A DNA stretch of 64,000 nt from the NCBI GenBank assembly GCA_021787535.1, contig JAJYLR010000001.1, positions 19,648 to 83,647 on the forward strand, in the 5' to 3' direction. The number at the start of each line of letters is the position of its first letter. Positions within the stretch are counted from its first letter, which is position 1. Shown in pieces: positions 4,986-64,000 of this stretch. A program made the position numbers and the translations under genes. This stretch comes from a bacterium. GTDB lineage: Bacteria > Patescibacteriota > CPR2 > UBA1875 > JAJYID01. The notes beneath the pieces were generated by a model. The model was not told the origin of the DNA and made no database searches. It saw only the letters and a program-made list of their open reading frames with translations.

Positions 4986-7085
4986 ATGGAGAAAAAATCT
5001 CTAGGAAAAGTCTCTCTGGAAGCAAAATCAGGAGACAAGAATTTTAAATTTGAAACAGGCAAATTAAACAAATTTGCTAGCGGATCGTGCGTCGTATCAA
5101 GCGGCGACTCTATTGTAATGGCAACGGTCGTGGTCTCGGAAGGAGTGAAGGAAGGTATCGATTACTTCCCTCTTTCAGTTGACTTCCAGGACAAATGGTA
5201 CGCAACCGGCAAGATCTCCGGTTCCAGGTTTGTCAAACGTGAAGGGCGCGGTTCGGAGCTCGGCATTTTGCGTTCCAGAATGATTGACAGGCCGATACGG
5301 CCAATGTTTCCGAAGGGATACATGAACGAAGTGCAGGTTATAGTTACTCCCCTTTCTATGGATTTGGAAATAGACCCTGTTGTTTTGGGCATGAACGCAG
5401 CTTCAGCTTCTCTGATGCTCAGTGGCGCGCCTTTTGAGGGGCCGATAAGTGCTGCCAGAGTTGGCCGGGTTGACGGTAAGCTCATCTTAAACCCAAGCTA
5501 CGAGGAAATGGAAAAATCAGATCTTGATATTTTGGTTGCCGGTACGAAAGAAGCCATTACGATGATTGAGGGTGGCGGAGATCAAGTCTCTGAAGACATT
5601 GTCGCCGAAGCACTCGAGTTTGCCCACAAAGGCATGCAGCCCTTGATTGAGGCGCAGGAAAAACTCATTAAAGAAATGAAGGTTAAAGCGCGTGAGTATG
5701 AACTGAATAAACCCCATGAAGGCGCATATCTTGCCATTACCAAATACCTGGAGGATAAGCTTGGCGAGGCAGTCAGACATCAGGACAAAATGGCTCGAAA
5801 CTTAATTATCAACGAGCTGGAAGACGTGGTTCATGAGCAATTCAAAGAAGAATTTGAAGAAGAGGAAATCTCCCTTGTGTTTGACAAGGTTATCAAAGAA
5901 GAAGTGAGAAAGGTAATACTTGAGGAAGGCATCCGTCCCGATCACAGGAAAATGGACGAAGTCAGGGCGCTGTCTGCTGAAGTCGGGTTACTACCGAGGA
6001 CTCACGGTTCAGGCCTCTTTACCCGTGGCGAAACACAGATTCTTTCCATCACCACACTCGCCTCTCCTTCGAAAGCCCAAATGATAGACTCAATGGATCA
6101 GGATTTCAACAAGCGCTACATCCACCATTACGTTGATACGGGCGCTTCATACGGTGATATCAAGCGGCTTGGCCCGGGCAGACGCGCCATCGGACACGGA
6201 TTTTTGGCTGAAAAGGCGCTTGAGCCGGTATTGCCTAAAGAAACAGACTTCCCTTACACCATTCGCGTTGTCAGTGAAATCTTATCCGAAAATGGCTCAT
6301 CCTCAATGGGTTCGGTTTGCGGTTCATCGCTGGCTCTTATGGATGCGGGCGTGCCTATCAAAGCGGCTGTTGCTGGTGTAGCCATGGGGCTGATGACCGA
6401 AGGCGGCGATCTTTCGAAGAAATACGTCATTTTGACCGACATTCAAGGAGCGGAGGACTTTGCCGGCGACATGGACTTCAAACTTGCCGGCACTAGAGGC
6501 GGCATGACCGCCATCCAGATGGACATCAAGGTCAAAGGTCTCACCCATGCGTTTTTGGTCGAGGTTATTAAGCGCGCCAAGGACGCCAGACTTCAGATCC
6601 TGGACGCTATGGACAAAGCCATTTCTGAGCCAAGAGGCGACCTTTCCGGTTACGCGCCTCGGCTGACTACTCTACACATTAATCCTGAAAAAATTCGCGA
6701 TGTTATCGGAAAAGGCGGGGAAATGATTAATAAAATTATTGCCGAGTGCAATGTCGAGATTGATATTGACGATGATGGAAATGTGGTTATCGCTGCGGTA
6801 AACGGTGAAAATGCCCAGAAAGCCATCGATTGGATTAAGTCAATCACGGCTGAGCCGGAAATTGGCAAAGTTTATAAAGGCAGAGTGGTCAAAATCATGG
6901 ACTTCGGCGCTTTTGTCGAGTTCATGCCAGGTAAGGAAGGCCTGGTTCACATCTCGCAGATTTCCCAGGAAAGGGTAAACAAAGTGACGGATGTGCTGAA
7001 AGAAGGGCAAGCTGTGGATGTGAAGCTGGTTGAGATCGACTCCCAAGGCCGAAATAATCTCTCCATGAAAGCAGTGAAGAAATAA
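4986..7085 (+). CDS. pnp: Polyribonucleotide nucleotidyltransferase (PNPase)
   Basis: Two RNase PH domains (RPIRPMFPKGY motif), a C-terminal KH domain and an S1 domain (GKVYKGRVVKIMDFGAFVEF). Confidence 0.95.
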   Translation: MEKKSLGKVSLEAKSGDKNFKFETGKLNKFASGSCVVSSGDSIVMATVVVSEGVKEGIDYFPLSVDFQDKWYATGKISGSRFVKREGRGSELGILRSRMIDRPIRPMFPKGYMNEVQVIVTPLSMDLEIDPVVLGMNAASASLMLSGAPFEGPISAARVGRVDGKLILNPSYEEMEKSDLDILVAGTKEAITMIEGGGDQVSEDIVAEALEFAHKGMQPLIEAQEKLIKEMKVKAREYELNKPHEGAYLAITKYLEDKLGEAVRHQDKMARNLIINELEDVVHEQFKEEFEEEEISLVFDKVIKEEVRKVILEEGIRPDHRKMDEVRALSAEVGLLPRTHGSGLFTRGETQILSITTLASPSKAQMIDSMDQDFNKRYIHHYVDTGASYGDIKRLGPGRRAIGHGFLAEKALEPVLPKETDFPYTIRVVSEILSENGSSSMGSVCGSSLALMDAGVPIKAAVAGVAMGLMTEGGDLSKKYVILTDIQGAEDFAGDMDFKLAGTRGGMTAIQMDIKVKGLTHAFLVEVIKRAKDARLQILDAMDKAISEPRGDLSGYAPRLTTLHINPEKIRDVIGKGGEMINKIIAECNVEIDIDDDGNVVIAAVNGENAQKAIDWIKSITAEPEIGKVYKGRVVKIMDFGAFVEFMPGKEGLVHISQISQERVNKVTDVLKEGQAVDVKLVEIDSQGRNNLSMKAVKK

Positions 7086-59811: not shown

Positions 59812-59888
59812 CGGGGTGTGGCGCAGTTGGCTAGCGCGCCTGCTTTGGGAGCAGGAGGCCGGAGGTTCGAGTCCTCTCACCCCGACCA
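59812..59888 (+). tRNA. tRNA-Pro (anticodon UGG)
   Basis: Folded by hand. C1:G72 acceptor cggggtg/caccccg, D-arm gcgc/gcgc, anticodon stem cctgc/gcagg with loop tttggga, T-arm ggagg-ttcgagt-cctct, discriminator A73, encoded CCA. Confidence 0.8.
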
Positions 59889-61409
59889 GATGAGACATTT
59901 TGAAAATTCAGGGGCGTTTTGTTGTACGCTCGCCCAACCTTCAGTAGTATTCGTTTCGCAAAAAGCCCTATATTTCGGAATTAAATCAAAGGGGCGGACA
60001 AATTCAAATTCAGCTTTTTGGGCAAGCAAACGGCGGTTCGTTCCAATTTTTTCCACCAATGACTTTATTTCATAAAAATCATCGGACAAAGCAAGTTTTT
60101 CGGCGCGGTGAGCGGTTTTTATCCATTCCCGCAAAGGTTCGATCCAACTGTTTCCCTTTCGCCCAAAATCAGACTCTCTTTTGCTAAGGTCTGTTTTTAT
60201 TTTTATAAGTTCATCTTTTTTTAAAAGATAAGTTTCTTTTTCAATACTTCCGTCTAAAAAAGCATTGACCAGTTTATCAAGTTTCGTTTCCGTCTCCTTG
60301 ATTTTCTTCTTGAAGCTTTGGGCGAAAGATTGCGCCGACCGGGCGTTGTCTTTTTCCCACACGTCAACTTGAGCGTTCATTTTTTCGGCCCAGCCGCCGC
60401 AAATAGCGATATTTTGAAGCCGTGATTTCAATTGATCAGCGAGTAAGTCCTCGCGTACATATCCTTGGCTGCATTTGCCGCGCTTTTTGGTACAGCGGTA
60501 ATAACGGTAAGTGCCGCCGTGTCCATGGGCAAACTGGGCGGTAATAGCGCCGCCGCACTCGCTGCAAGTTAAAAGCCCGACAAACGGGAAGTTATGCTTC
60601 CTTTTGCTTTTTCGAGGTCTTGCTCGCTGTTTTAGAACTTTTTGGACGGCTTCAAAAACGCTTAAGGAAACAATTGCCGGAAAACCGCCTTCATAGGTTT
60701 CACCATTGTGTACAATCAAACCGAGATAAACTTTGTTGGTGAGCATTCTCTGTAGCTTTGCCTTGCAAAATGGTTTTCCGGTTCTTCCAACCACGCCCCA
60801 AAAACTCAGGCGCCGGCCCAAACTTTCCAAAGTGTGTTGGCCATGGGCAAATTCCTCAAACGTTTTAACTACAAGTCTTGATTTTACAGGATCGGGTTCA
60901 ATATTTCTCGTTTTCGGATTATTCACATAGCCGAAAGGCGCAAGTGTCGGCCATTCGCCGCGCCTGATTTTTTGTCTGATCCCGCGCTTTACGTTCTCCG
61001 ACAAATTGTCGGAATAATACTTTGATTGGCCAAAGGCGACTTGAAGCATAAAGAGCCCTTGCGGAGTCGGCTCAAACCAAAAAGTGGGAAAGTTTAAAGA
61101 AACGATCTTGCCGATGTCAATACAATAAATTATTTGTCCGCCATCAACGGAATTTCTGGCCAAACGATCAGGGTGCCAAGCAATCAAGCCGATCGGTTCT
61201 TTGCTCTCGTGGACTTTGCCCATCATTTCATTAAAAACCTTCCGGCCCGGTTTCTTGGCGCTTTTAGATTCAATAAAGGTTTCCGCAATCTCTATATTTT
61301 CCCGTTTGGCAAATTCCGCCAACTCCGTAAGCTGCGCTTCAATAGACATCACTTGTCTTTCTTCATCTTCGGTGGATTTACGGGCGTAGAGAAAAAATCT
61401 TGTTTTCAT
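59877..61409 (-). CDS. Large serine recombinase (resolvase/invertase catalytic domain, recombinase domain, zinc-ribbon/coiled-coil), integrase-type
   Basis: N-terminus YARKSTEDEERQVMSIEAQ (catalytic Ser region). DRLARN. Recombinase domain. C-terminal Cys cluster CSECGG...C..C. Confidence 0.85.
   Translation of the reverse strand: MKTRFFLYARKSTEDEERQVMSIEAQLTELAEFAKRENIEIAETFIESKSAKKPGRKVFNEMMGKVHESKEPIGLIAWHPDRLARNSVDGGQIIYCIDIGKIVSLNFPTFWFEPTPQGLFMLQVAFGQSKYYSDNLSENVKRGIRQKIRRGEWPTLAPFGYVNNPKTRNIEPDPVKSRLVVKTFEEFAHGQHTLESLGRRLSFWGVVGRTGKPFCKAKLQRMLTNKVYLGLIVHNGETYEGGFPAIVSLSVFEAVQKVLKQRARPRKSKRKHNFPFVGLLTCSECGGAITAQFAHGHGGTYRYYRCTKKRGKCSQGYVREDLLADQLKSRLQNIAICGGWAEKMNAQVDVWEKDNARSAQSFAQSFKKKIKETETKLDKLVNAFLDGSIEKETYLLKKDELIKIKTDLSKRESDFGRKGNSWIEPLREWIKTAHRAEKLALSDDFYEIKSLVEKIGTNRRLLAQKAEFEFVRPFDLIPKYRAFCETNTTEGWASVQQNAPEFSKCLIWSG
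59884..60040. repeat. Left 157-bp inverted repeat (IR-L). It starts at the last 5 nt of tRNA-Pro and covers the 3' end (C-terminal ~50 codons) of the serine recombinase gene.
   Basis: Reverse complement matches 61544-61700 (first ~90 nt identical, ~92% overall). Confidence 0.85.
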
Positions 61410-61543
61410 AATGTTTCCTCCTTAATTTATATGTCTCCTTTGGCCTAAAAGCGTGGGATTAAAACTTGCTTTGTATTTTTGCTTTTGGCAAAAACGGAAA
61501 AAATCGGATACAAATTTCATTTGTGAATTTGCTTCGCAACTTT

Positions 61544-61700
61544 CGAACCGCCGTTTGCTTTCCCGAAAAGCCGAGTTTGAATTTGTCCGCCCCTTTGATT
61601 TAATTCCTAAATACAGGGTTTTTTGCGAAACGAATACTACTGAAGGTTGGGCGAGCGTACAACAAAACGCCCCTGAATTTTCAAAATGTCTCATCTGGTC
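61544..61700. repeat. Right 157-bp inverted repeat (IR-R), an inverted copy of the recombinase 3' end. It ends with gtctcatctggtc, which mirrors the tRNA-Pro junction.
   Basis: Seen directly. ORFs 59818-60075 and 61422-61694 translate to the same peptide on opposite strands. Confidence 0.85.
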
Positions 61701-61756
61701 GCAATTGCTGAACGTTGCTCGAACCCATTTCGAACAGGGAGAGGAATACTAGGGGC

Positions 61757-61782
61757 GATTTTTACAAGGATTTGTAAAAATC
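61757..61782. promoter_or_regulatory. Perfect palindrome gatttttacaa-ggat-ttgtaaaaatc, 57 nt beyond IR-R. Candidate recombinase binding or crossover site.
   Basis: 11-bp perfect arms around a 4-nt centre. Confidence 0.35.
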
Positions 61783-62055
61783 TGTGGCGGAAATTCGGGT
61801 CGGGGCGAATTTCCGCGGGGCTTTCGGACTTTCTTAAATCTCGGACCGCCTCAAGCATGAACTTTCGCCTGTTTCCCCAGCTTAACTGGTTCGGGTTTTT
61901 GCGGCGAAGATCGGGCGGCAAGGAAAGAAAGGGAACTTTTTCGCTTGCCCCGCCCAGCCCGGCGCGCTCCAGGGTTAAAGGGGCTCCCTTGTTTTTCTTC
62001 TAAGATAACTATAGTATGTAGAACTAAAGTTAGCAAGTAGTTTATTATATCCAGT

Positions 62056-62265
62056 ATGAAATCAAATGTTTTAATCAAATTCGGTAACAGGGTTCGGGAG
62101 GAAAGGGCCAAACAAGGATTATCTCAAGAAGCTTTGGCTGATAAGGCAGAAGTGCATAGAACTTACATTGGGATGATTGAAAGAGCTGAAAAGAATGTGA
62201 CTTTGATAACTATTGAGAGGTTAGCTAAAGCGCTTGGTGTTAAACCTGAAGATTTGGTTAGGTGA
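62056..62265 (+). CDS. XRE-family helix-turn-helix transcriptional regulator (Cro/CI-like)
   Basis: LSQEALADKAEVHRTYIGMIERAEKNVTLITIERLAKALGV is a canonical HTH_XRE sequence. Confidence 0.85.
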   Translation: MKSNVLIKFGNRVREERAKQGLSQEALADKAEVHRTYIGMIERAEKNVTLITIERLAKALGVKPEDLVR

Positions 62266-62278
62266 GGTTGAAAAAGAT

Positions 62279-62779
62279 ATGATATTTTCTGATATTAAAA
62301 TTGAAATCTCTGCTAATACTGTAGCTTGGTATGGAGCAATAGTCTCCTCTCTAGCATTTTTTATAGCTTTTCTAACATATAAGAGAGACCGAGCAAAAAT
62401 TGTGGTGGAATGGCAAAAAGATATGTTTTTTTATGATGATAGCATAAATCCTGGTGAACCATATCTTTTAATCAAAGTTATTAATAAAGGACGCCGTTCG
62501 GTTAGAATACAACAAGTGGGATTTTCTAATTTGTACAAAAGGGGAGGAGGAATTCTTAACCCTTATTATATTTCCCTGCCTAGTACAGTTAGTGAAGGTG
62601 AGAGTTTATCTCTTACGTGGAAACAGAAAAATATTTTTAATAAACCAATCTCATCATTTAATGTTTACGACGCAACAGGGAAAGTTTATAAGGCGAGAGT
62701 TGTCTCTCTTCCGGAATATTTGTTCGACAAAATTGTAAAATTTTTCCTAAAGTTAAAAAATCATAAAAAGAAGTCCTGA
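62279..62779 (+). CDS. Hypothetical membrane-anchored protein (start at MIFSDIKIEI after the HTH gene stop)
   Basis: One TM then a beta-rich domain. No family. Confidence 0.4.
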   Translation: MIFSDIKIEISANTVAWYGAIVSSLAFFIAFLTYKRDRAKIVVEWQKDMFFYDDSINPGEPYLLIKVINKGRRSVRIQQVGFSNLYKRGGGILNPYYISLPSTVSEGESLSLTWKQKNIFNKPISSFNVYDATGKVYKARVVSLPEYLFDKIVKFFLKLKNHKKKS

Positions 62780-62794
62780 AAATCACAACTACCA

Positions 62795-63454
62795 TTAATC
62801 CTCATTCTTTATTAAGACCTCTCTGCCAAATCGTTGGTTGTCCGTTGAAAACATATAAATTCGCAAAGGTTTCATATCCTCAAACACCACAGCTTTTTTG
62901 TATCCACAAGTATCTCGAAGACTGGAGGGTGTTATATACCACCAAGCAATTGCAGCACTATTTATTGCGGTAAATTCAACTCTACCTTTCCAGATATTCC
63001 CATCTTTCTCGACAAGTTTAATCGTAAATTCATTGCCGCCACAGTATTTCAAAGTTGCCTCACCGTTACAATCATCGCTAAGGAGGTTGTAGTCCTTATC
63101 ATGTTGATTTGCTAAATTTTCAAATTCATTCTTATCTTCTTCTGAAAATTTCTTGAAATTATAATTCTCCCAAGCATCCATCTCACCGGGTTCAGTTTTT
63201 TCAGACGGTTTGTCCCAATGATATGAATATGCTTTGTAAGTCCCTTCAATTTTTTTAAATCTTGAGAAATTTTTGTATATCTCAATAATTCTCTCCAGGA
63301 TTATAAGCGCAATTGCTACAAATGCGCTTATTTTTATAGTTTTTAGATCATTACTATCTTTTTTGGCAAAAAACCACCATGCGAGATCAGAAACGAAAAA
63401 GATAGTAAATACTTTGATTATCCAACTACCCCATATCAGTTTTATTAGTTTCAT
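62795..63454 (-). CDS. Hypothetical membrane protein (two N-terminal TM helices plus a soluble domain)
   Basis: ORF only. Confidence 0.4.
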   Translation of the reverse strand: MKLIKLIWGSWIIKVFTIFFVSDLAWWFFAKKDSNDLKTIKISAFVAIALIILERIIEIYKNFSRFKKIEGTYKAYSYHWDKPSEKTEPGEMDAWENYNFKKFSEEDKNEFENLANQHDKDYNLLSDDCNGEATLKYCGGNEFTIKLVEKDGNIWKGRVEFTAINSAAIAWWYITPSSLRDTCGYKKAVVFEDMKPLRIYMFSTDNQRFGREVLIKNED

Positions 63455-63548
63455 TCAATTTCCTTTATAATTCTGTCTGTTTCGACAAGCACTTTAGTGA
63501 CTTTTTGATAATGCTCGAAAACTTCAGAAATTTAAATCTATCTTTTCT

Positions 63549-64000
63549 TTAACTTTTCCCAAGGTTTTTGTAGGTTGAGATAAGTTCTTTAAAATTCTGG
63601 ACCTTATATTTTCCCCAGCCTTCTTGTTTTACATAAAGCATTTCATAATTATATTTCTTTTGTCTCTCTGTAGCGTCCTTGCACCATTGTCCAAGTCTCT
63701 CAATTTTTTTCAAATCGTCTAAATCTTCTCGTCCCTTAGTCTCAATGATATAAATTGTTTTATCATCTTTCTTGACTAAGAAATCCGGGTAATAGTAAGA
63801 AATTCCGCCTTCAGCGTTTTTATAATCAATTTTAAACTGAAAATTTCCGCTAACATTCCCATAGTTTTTTGCAAATGAAATGATATCATCACATTTCTCT
63901 AGAAAACTAGCAAATTTTAGTTCAAAATCGCTGTCGCCGACAATTTTATTAAATATGCTCTTGGTAGGCACAAGGAAGCTCTTGTTGTTTACTACGAATG
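63549..64000 (-). CDS. PD-(D/E)XK nuclease-fold domain protein. The ORF is open to the window edge (N-terminus beyond 64000) and may be the C-terminal domain of a larger restriction/helicase-type protein.
   Basis: YYYPDFLVKKDDKTIYIIETKGRE contains the D...E-T-K nuclease motif. No stop upstream in frame before the window end. Confidence 0.45.
   Translation of the reverse strand, partial: FVVNNKSFLVPTKSIFNKIVGDSDFELKFASFLEKCDDIISFAKNYGNVSGNFQFKIDYKNAEGGISYYYPDFLVKKDDKTIYIIETKGREDLDDLKKIERLGQWCKDATERQKKYNYEMLYVKQEGWGKYKVQNFKELISTYKNLGKS

Follow-up and report, generated by a model that had tools for sequence, protein, structure and literature searches.

The window analyzed here is a 64,000-nucleotide (nt) stretch of contig JAJYLR010000001.1 (assembly GCA_021787535.1), which is assigned to the Patescibacteriota. 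Toward its 3′ end it carries, on the minus strand, a gene whose product is by domain architecture a large serine recombinase (LSR), with the Pfam domains PF00239 at residues 6-153, PF07508 at residues 175-262 and PF13408 at residues 275-330. The gene converges on a tRNA-Pro gene. In agreement with the initial annotation, which had been made from the sequence and its open reading frames (ORFs) alone, the two genes overlap at the 3′ end of the tRNA; the overlap measures 12 nt and comprises the last four codons of the recombinase. The end of the LSR gene recurs as an inverted copy upstream of the gene. As set out below, this segment is probably the integrase end of a mobile island inserted at the tip of the tRNA gene; the coordinates of its features are collected in Table 1.

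A repeat search and base-by-base comparison put the two repeat arms (left, IR-L; right, IR-R) at 158 nt with 7 mismatches (95.6% identity). A repeat of 158 nt at 96% identity is far above chance expectation, and the inverted repeats described in the initial annotation are present, at a length of 158 rather than 157 nt. The identity of their outer parts also stands, over 82 nt instead of the approximately 90 nt given there, and this stretch is the longest identical run between the arms. All mismatches are confined to the inner half (positions 59965, 59970, 59976, 60009, 60012, 60019 and 60023), and sequence identity breaks off sharply at all four ends. The 64-kb window contains no further full copy of the arm; beyond it, where the island ends, lies a partial third copy of 48-53 nt. 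As had been noticed, an ORF on the plus strand (61453-61752) crosses IR-R and repeats the last 52 residues of the recombinase (...NRRLL..KCLIWS), after which it continues as QLLNVARTHFEQGEEY*. A scan of the region from 59 to 64 kb against Rfam returned the tRNA-Pro as the sole match.

Table 1. Window coordinates of the recombinase module and its surroundings; Q denotes the conserved sequence beyond the right core, and Q2 its second copy at the far end of the island
Feature	Position	Strand	Remarks
tRNA-Pro(TGG)	59812-59888	+	ARAGORN; Rfam RF00005, 68 bits; putative B-type arm of attL
LSR gene	59877-61409	-	510 amino acids; Pfam Resolvase + Recombinase + Zn_ribbon_recom
Core CGACCA (TGGTCG on recombinase strand)	59883-59888		encodes W508-S509; last acceptor-stem bases, discriminator A and CCA of the tRNA
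IR-L	59883-60040	-	last 52 codons of the LSR gene; putative P′-type arm of attL
LSR leader/promoter region	61410-61543	-	hairpin run, conserved TCCAATTTTTTCC, AAGGAG ribosome-binding site; aligned across 15-20 loci
IR-R	61544-61701	+	inverted copy of the last 52 codons; putative P′-type arm of a second, intact, inverted attP
Q1-side copy of the 281-nt inverted repeat	61649-61929		partner (arm fragment, core, Q2 and spacer) at ~76387-76666, outside the window
Core TGGTCG of the putative inverted attP	61696-61701	+	junction alignment
Q, putative P-type arm	61702-61752	+	first 34 nt conserved (CAATTGCTGAACGnnGCTCGAACC..TTT.GAAC); encodes native tail QLLNVARTHFEQGEEY and stop codon
Two hairpins	61757-61782 (palindrome) and ~61786-61816	+	RNAfold; just past the stop codon of the Q-encoded tail
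HTH_XRE (cI/Cro-like) gene	62056-62265	+	69 amino acids; Pfam; reads away from the recombinase module
Start of cargo	62234-64000		continues beyond the window to ~76666

The LSR carries a Y-A-R-K-S-T motif (with S12) that is invariant among the aligned homologues. Its nearest solved structure is that of the SPbeta integrase (E value of 5e-11), and annotated phage and plasmid collections contained nothing above 30% identity. A protein search at E<=1e-20 returned more than 6000 homologues, the matches listed reaching 65-88% identity. These homologues reside in metagenome-assembled genomes (MAGs) assigned to Patescibacteria, Omnitrophota, Bdellovibrionales, Gammaproteobacteria and others, frequently on contigs of about 2 kb. 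In an AlphaFold model that is weak as a whole (23 sequences, mean predicted local distance difference test [pLDDT] score of 59), residues 320-456 were modeled, with low confidence, as long helices, and residues 455-510 were likewise of low confidence. The repeat-encoded residues 458-509, with a pLDDT of <50, lie beyond the last invariant block and are poorly conserved save for W508-S509. Across the family, the inner boundary of the arm falls at the same codon, N458-R459, where protein conservation stops.

Putative attachment sites on both sides of the recombinase gene

The codons of W508 and S509 (TGGTCG) are the reverse complement of the ...CGACCA end of the tRNA, so that the LSR gene appears to cross the recombination junction exactly at the tRNA tip. 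The C termini of the homologues all share ...W-S and then split into two classes of tails. Tails of the first class are the translated antisense strand of a tRNA gene, for example WSGRQDLNLRHPAPKAGALPGCATPR. Those of the second class are conserved (WSQLLNE[AVM]RT[HF]FE..) and match the tail that follows IR-R in the window. In the LSR gene of the window, the native tail of 16 codons (QLLNxARTxFE...) is swapped for a single tRNA-encoded Gly codon and a stop codon.

For comparison, we collected 49 related loci (designated by L numbers) from scans of representative genomes and JGI metagenomes. The core TGGTCG was invariant in every aligned arm junction, and beyond it we found either a tRNA gene or the conserved 34-nt sequence Q (CAATTGCTGAACGAAGCTCGAACCTTTTTTGAAC). 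At 54 of the 55 arm ends, the flank was tRNA (31) or Q (22), by a scripted classification that missed L034, which was read by eye as tRNA; the remaining end was cut by the end of its contig, and none adjoined arbitrary DNA. Closer inspection of these flanks revealed that the T-loop motif, TCGAACC on the recombinase strand, starts 12 nt past the core in every tRNA flank and 17 nt past the core in every Q. The 12/17-nt spacing also occurs in three sub-families (L010, L041 and L048), and the corresponding values in a fourth (L045) are 10 and 14. In the sites of the LI/A118 integrase, the motif for the zinc ribbon domain lies 5 bp nearer to the center in attB than in attP (Rutherford et al. 2013, PMC3783163). 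The position of TCGAACC, 5 bp farther out in Q than in the tRNA, matches this model. We accordingly take the tRNA for the B arm, Q for the P arm and the repeat arms for P′ arms. As judged from the alignments, Q and the tRNA differ by the half-site motif shift that separates sites of the attP type from those of the attB type.

Three loci (L004, L027 and L031) extend to the other end of the element. There, an inverted second copy of Q (Q2) directly follows host-like DNA, with GTCG at the junction. The cores at these far ends read TTGTCG, GAGTCG and TGGTCG, respectively. Because only GTCG is kept, the crossover is expected to occur within these four bases (59883-59886 in the window), and comparison of the attL, attP-like and attR junctions leaves GT, TC or CG as the crossover dinucleotide. 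With high confidence for an assignment drawn from sequence, we therefore read the junction of the tRNA with IR-L as attL, the junction of IR-R with Q as a second, intact and inverted attP, and the junction of host DNA with Q2 as attR. The divergent far-end cores of L004 (TTGTCG, 6642-6647) and L027 (GAGTCG, 1408-1413) imply that the host tRNA-Pro genes originally had no encoded CCA and that, in these two loci, the element supplied it at attL.

Conservation, mobility and island context

The LSR gene overlaps a convergent tRNA-Pro gene (tgg, cgg or ggg) wherever the 3′ flank is present, and an inverted copy of its own 3′ end is found wherever about 300 nt or more of upstream sequence is available, including some 20 relatives at 75-88% amino acid identity. 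Most loci have arms of 158 nt; with insertions in the C terminus, the arms reach 182-213 nt. Within one element they are 86-100% identical, mostly 98-100%, and between elements approximately 81-89%, a pattern by which the aligned IR-L and IR-R evolve in concert. The same layout recurs on five contigs of sub-families at 39-45% amino acid identity, with arms of 76-134 nt (134 nt in L048, 79 nt in L010 and 76 nt in L042, L043 and L045) that are 91-100% identical. These distant sub-families target tRNA-Ala and other tRNA genes; L009 and L041, for instance, adjoin tRNA-Ala and have arms of 124 nt at 97.6% identity. There were two exceptions: L036 has a diverged arm, and L017 has cleanly lost IR-R together with Q. 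In our judgment, the concerted evolution of the arms and their deep retention rule out both a decaying remnant and an assembly artifact.

Two further observations concern the loss and the origin of the second arm. The module of L017 (61-127) is 99.75% identical to that of L015 (1-273), from which it differs by a clean 206-nt deletion that takes part of the spacer, Q and the entire second arm, making it a natural 'single-site' derivative. At 32% identity, the ORF of L012/L051 (10001-11633) overlaps a convergent tRNA-His gene by 28 nt, and no inverted copy of its 3′ end was present within 1.5 kb. Set beside L012/L051, which is without the repeat, the alignments suggest that the twin-site architecture may have arisen inside the tRNA-targeting clade.

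The surroundings of the module vary. L018 has Q at both ends, and since its arms differ at 9 positions, the assembly of this form is unambiguous; it is the form expected of an unintegrated element, as far as the junctions tell. In L028, the module lies between two convergent tRNA-Pro genes (ggg and tgg). In L034, the order is tRNA, arm, promoter and gene, the gene pointing away from the tRNA, and this locus holds a single arm and hence no assembly ambiguity; L024 is arranged in the same way. In L013, the gene reads through Q toward a helix-turn-helix (HTH) gene and a restriction-modification system, which is opposite to the orientation seen in the window with respect to similar cargo, and L018 also has its gene reading into Q beside cargo. 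Collectively, the flank combinations Q/Q, tRNA/Q and tRNA/tRNA and the tRNA-divergent gene argue that both ends of the module are active sites.

Modules that are 100% identical over 1.2 kb were found next to different tRNA-Pro genes (L015 compared with L016 and L002), and L017 is nearly so. The identical modules (L015, L016, L002, L019 and L017) come from different metagenomes and adjoin tRNA-Pro genes of ggg type, of tgg type and of a second tgg sequence, which indicates that the family is currently mobile. Together with the binning of homologues into MAGs of several phyla, these modules point to either a very recent spread over a broad host range or mis-binned short contigs.

We extended the source contig by means of a cargo protein (record L053; window coordinate = 80349 minus L053 coordinate) and found an exact Q2 at L053 position 3736, in the orientation predicted by the site model. 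Q2 lies within a 281-nt inverted repeat of 90.7% identity (L053 3683-3962 versus 18700-18420). The island extends from 59883 to ~76666, about 16.8 kb in total, and runs past the end of the window. Its cargo is a defense and mobilization set that comprises, besides a few further genes, the HTH_XRE gene, of which eight relatives also have a homologue at the same position, two genes of unknown function, a type III restriction-modification system (900-amino-acid Res and 721-amino-acid Mod), DUF3768, Replic_Relax, a type IV secretion system coupling protein of 945 amino acids (VirD4/TraG-like) and an SDH_protease/NfeD-like gene. Beyond the island lie genes for PNPOx, RNase H and other host-like products. 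With an LSR, a relaxase-like Replic_Relax protein and a coupling protein between putative attachment sites, the island has the gene profile of an integrative mobilizable element. A direct repeat of the tRNA 3′ end that could serve as attR was absent within 10 kb, and the far end has Q2 instead. A search for an empty tRNA-Pro site or a strain variant via the neighboring HU protein yielded only a 1.3-kb Logan contig that ends inside the tRNA.

The cargo of relatives differs and includes a P-type ATPase, radical-SAM enzymes and an M64-like peptidase. In three loci, part of the spacer beyond Q recurs as perfect inverted copies of 92-151 nt on both sides of the cargo (L003, 3672-4424 and 8994-9601; L013, 2052-2143 and 8018-8109; L019, 1-99 and 6403-6501), and L003 contains a second spacer and HTH module in tandem, 72% identical. 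These brackets look like successive accretion of elements with internal deletions. Outside the far-end attR of L031, positions 563-931 hold a truncated tRNA-Pro duplicate, an arm-like fragment with TGGTCG and a degenerate tRNA-like stretch; the duplicate with its upstream flank (571-708) is 93-95% identical to 6098-6234, depending on the BLAST settings. The features of L031 suggest repeated integrations or rearrangements at one tRNA gene.

The leader of the LSR gene and the region past Q are rich in hairpins. In the leader (equivalents in L003-L036), the hairpin loops read CGAAG, CAAAGG or GTAGG, and the stems vary in sequence between elements yet stay paired, as in GAATTGCGAAGCAATTC, GCGTGCGAAGCACGC and GGCTGCCGAAGGCAGCC, with invariant TCCAATTTTTTCC and ACAAAGCAAGTTTTT blocks between them. 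RNAalifold gave a weak signal, with covariation in one hairpin; the region may be a structured RNA leader or a set of insulating terminators. A scan for sigma-70 promoters and terminators returned nothing convincing as an LSR promoter, the counts being no higher than in shuffled sequence. A promoter-like TTGCTA-17 nt-TATAGT lies on the minus strand at 62008-62036, divergent from the HTH gene. Transcripts from it could cross the spacer, Q and IR-R into the LSR gene and, containing both arms, form a 158-bp panhandle. On the other side, the palindrome at 61757-61782 (11-bp arms and a 4-nt loop) had been suggested as a recombination site. This is not supported, as it begins 4 nt after the stop codon of the Q-encoded tail, and the hairpins that occupy this position in all relatives are unrelated in sequence. 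The two hairpins of the window are both duplicated at Q2, and their placement fits a terminator or RNA-end structure for an LSR gene reading into Q. A tRNA-like stretch at 61797-61820 proved to be merely the second of these hairpins.

Proposed explanation and its alternatives

The explanation that we favor, and consider likely, is that the window segment is the integrase end of a ~16.8-kb integrative mobilizable island at the tRNA-Pro 3′ tip, with its sites assigned as attL and an inverted attP. This judgment covers the assignment of the sites and the identity of the element, not the purpose of the second site. According to this model, the LSR gene would run across its own attP, with the crossover within the GTCG of the terminal Trp-Ser codons, and integration would exchange the native 16-codon tail for one encoded by the tRNA antisense strand, here Gly and a stop codon. 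IR-R would be the P′ arm of a second complete attP, which would continue into Q as its P arm and stand inverted immediately upstream of the gene. Two recombination-competent ends would bracket the recombinase module, with the inverted Q2 as the far end of the island. The recombinase would presumably pair a tRNA-type site with a Q-type site. Having twin sites would let the element insert either way round, insert doubly or exchange cassettes between two tRNA genes, and would let the module flip. Inversion, either by the LSR at the cores or by homologous recombination over the arms, would restore a full-length LSR reading into Q. More tentatively, and with rather more doubt than belief on our part, such a dual-ended integrase cassette (a gene-spanning attP with a mirrored second attP, the tRNA T-arm as attB and its 5-bp-shifted mimic as attP) might allow reactions not known from natural serine-integrase elements. 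One would be self-inversion without a recombination directionality factor, toggling between tRNA-truncated and full-length integrase. Another would be a natural exchange of cassettes between paired tRNA genes, and this would account for the spread across phyla.

Several observations weigh against this explanation or parts of it. The island that begins in the window does not end in a clean attR. Before Q2 comes a third arm fragment, 48-53 nt long and of another type (...PEFEKSLVWS, 77% identical to the gene arm), which lies in L053 3677-3735 (~76614-76672) and has another TGGTCG just to its left, next to host DNA; this calls for a further event, for example a tandem insertion and a later deletion. 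The simplest reading of the aligned fragment would be the scar of an earlier resident element, a kind of scar that L031 also shows, and it could alternatively reflect a crossover at a pseudo-core. The gene reads into the tRNA in ~28 loci and away from it in 2, a ratio unlike that expected of two equally used attP sites, and, given the near-identical arms of L013 and L024, their orientations could in principle be choices of the assembler. Inspection by eye for dyad symmetry between the P′ and P arms was unconvincing, with none demonstrated, and no recombination directionality factor was identified. Nothing in the codon positions of the mismatches shows that the non-coding arm is translated; across 9 loci, they fall at 16/10/16 without bias, and the pattern in the window alone (4 of 7 synonymous) carries no meaning. 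Finally, canonical serine integrases do not recombine attL with attP (PMC3783163). The canonical model forbids this reaction as well as attP with attP, and flipping driven by the LSR is therefore unexpected from known relatives.

The initial annotation had called the locus an invertible or mobile unit. In this broad sense it was right, and its three specific readings fared differently. The one closest to our explanation, of which it is a sub-hypothesis rather than an exclusive rival, is a self-inverting switch. The LSR, or RecA acting on the 158-nt arms, would flip the 1.8-kb module between a state in which the gene converges on the tRNA, ends in a tRNA-encoded tail and is under regulation from the side of the HTH gene, and a state in which it leaves the tRNA, has the native Q-encoded tail and is maybe driven by read-through from the tRNA, giving on/off or directionality control of the integrase. 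Both orientations do exist relative to the tRNA (L034 and L024 as against ~28 others), between relatives rather than in one sample, and relative to Q, HTH gene and cargo (L013 as against the window, L003, L004, L019 and others). The homogenization of the arms implies frequent exchange between them, and a swap of P′ arms between attL and the inverted attP would regenerate the same site types and so be reversible. However, most of these cases, the tRNA-divergent state among them, are open to explanation by integration through the second attP, for which no inversion is needed, and isomerization is required by L013 alone, whose arms are nearly identical. Moreover, at k = 141 the assembly of the source contig passed through both arms and gave one orientation, and the bar on attL with attP recombination applies here too. 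We consider the switch possible but doubtful.

That the 1.8-kb unit (59883-61701) is instead an autonomous element resembling an insertion sequence, with 158-bp terminal inverted repeats, the LSR as transposase and tRNA-Pro 3′ ends as target, appears unlikely. Large serine transposases such as TnpX and TndX exist, L028 has the unit alone between two tRNA-Pro genes, identical units adjoin different tRNA-Pro genes, and many homologues sit on contigs of 1.7-2.3 kb. Yet a repeat longer than k is expected to leave de Bruijn assemblers with contigs of about 2 kb, no locus has a tRNA at one end and arbitrary host DNA at the other, and Q flanks 22 of the arm ends. Conservation extends past the unit to Q, the spacer and usually the HTH gene, the inverted Q2 delimits larger islands, and no junction of arm with arm, as in a circle, was seen among the loci. 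A functionless, decaying remnant of a second, inverted recombinase gene or tandem element is less probable still. In its favor, the arm holds only the last 52 codons, derivatives exist with the arm deleted (L017) or diverged (L036), and the third fragment at the far end shows that remnants accumulate. A remnant would nevertheless hardly have the same inner boundary throughout the family, persist in sub-families at 39-45% protein identity while evolving with the 3′ end of the gene, stay 98-100% identical inside most elements and different between them, and always be followed by an intact core and a conserved Q. Least credible of all is a chimeric fold-back in the assembly. The window does come from a MEGAHIT k141 metagenome contig, and inverted repeats are a known source of misassembly, but the longest identical stretch of the arms (82 nt) is shorter than k = 141, leaving the path unambiguous. 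An NCBI record and a Logan assembly both contain this island, and the architecture recurs in dozens of independent JGI, ENA and NCBI assemblies.

Novelty and comparison with known recombination systems

The enzyme and its integration at a tRNA gene are of known kinds. What appears to be new is an attP that lies within the integrase ORF at the tRNA tip and is mirrored across the gene, with a P arm mimicking the tRNA T-arm. Searching the open-access literature in full text, we came across no account of natural paired attP sites in inverted orientation, of a serine integrase gene that has inverted copies of its 3′ end as flanks, or of elements of this kind from Patescibacteria. Serine integrases are major tools of genome engineering, and the natural layout of their sites is regarded as simple, with a single attP and a single attB. 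Here, in an abundant family of more than 6000 homologues, inverted attP sites would lie on both sides of the integrase gene, and integration would cut the gene itself. The comparison of tRNA and Q offers a natural, family-wide illustration of the 5-bp rule for attP and attB, and it suggests that the enzyme recognizes the near-universal T-arm of tRNAs, which may account for a broad range of hosts. Should the twin sites serve for self-inversion or cassette exchange, they would represent a new natural reaction mode and a design for orientation-independent or exchangeable insertion; if they serve for neither, the deep conservation of the second site still calls for an explanation.

With the serine integrases of phages and integrative and conjugative elements (phiC31, Bxb1, A118/LI and SPbeta SprA/YokA), the LSR shares the Resolvase N-terminal, Recombinase and zinc ribbon domains, short sites around a small core, and an integrated element flanked by hybrid sites. 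With the LI integrase, it further shares B-type and P-type arms in which one motif is displaced by 5 bp (PMC3783163). Its sequence similarity to all of these is very distant (<30% in the phage and plasmid collections). Unlike in those systems, the putative attP lies inside the integrase ORF, so that integration alters the C terminus, the target is the last bases of a tRNA, and the end of the gene is copied, over 158 nt, as the P′ arm of a second, inverted attP.

The invertases Hin, Gin, Cin and Pin are proteins of ~190 amino acids with a C-terminal HTH that act on 26-bp sites with a Fis-bound enhancer and switch an outward promoter or alternative tail-fiber ends. As in the case of hin, the recombinase gene described here lies between inverted sites and could flip its own segment. 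It differs in encoding a 510-amino-acid LSR, in its 158-nt arms that include coding sequence, in having one tRNA-hybrid site and in that no regulated target gene was identified. In the engineered design of phiC31 recombinase-mediated cassette exchange, a cassette between inverted attP sites is exchanged with DNA bracketed by attB sites, in either orientation. L028, whose module lies between convergent tRNA-Pro genes, is built as the product of such an exchange would be. The differences are that the arrangement is natural, that the bracketed cassette is the integrase gene itself and that the exchange is only putative.

Mycobacteriophages BPs and Brujita, which use a tyrosine integrase, place attP inside the repressor gene for integration-dependent immunity. 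As in the window, attP lies in a coding sequence and integration gives a different C terminus; there, it is the repressor gene that is cut by a tyrosine integrase, and no duplicated inverted site is known. The predicted free circle of the present island, a recombinase module and cargo split by two long inverted repeats that hold the recombinase sites, resembles the yeast 2-micron plasmid, whose FLP is a tyrosine recombinase serving copy-number amplification and which is not integrative. Lastly, TnpX of Tn4451 and TndX of Tn5397 are LSRs that move a discrete element through a circular intermediate. The present element would likewise be a discrete unit moved by an LSR, and it is set apart from them by its long terminal inverted repeats and by the pairing of tRNA and Q.

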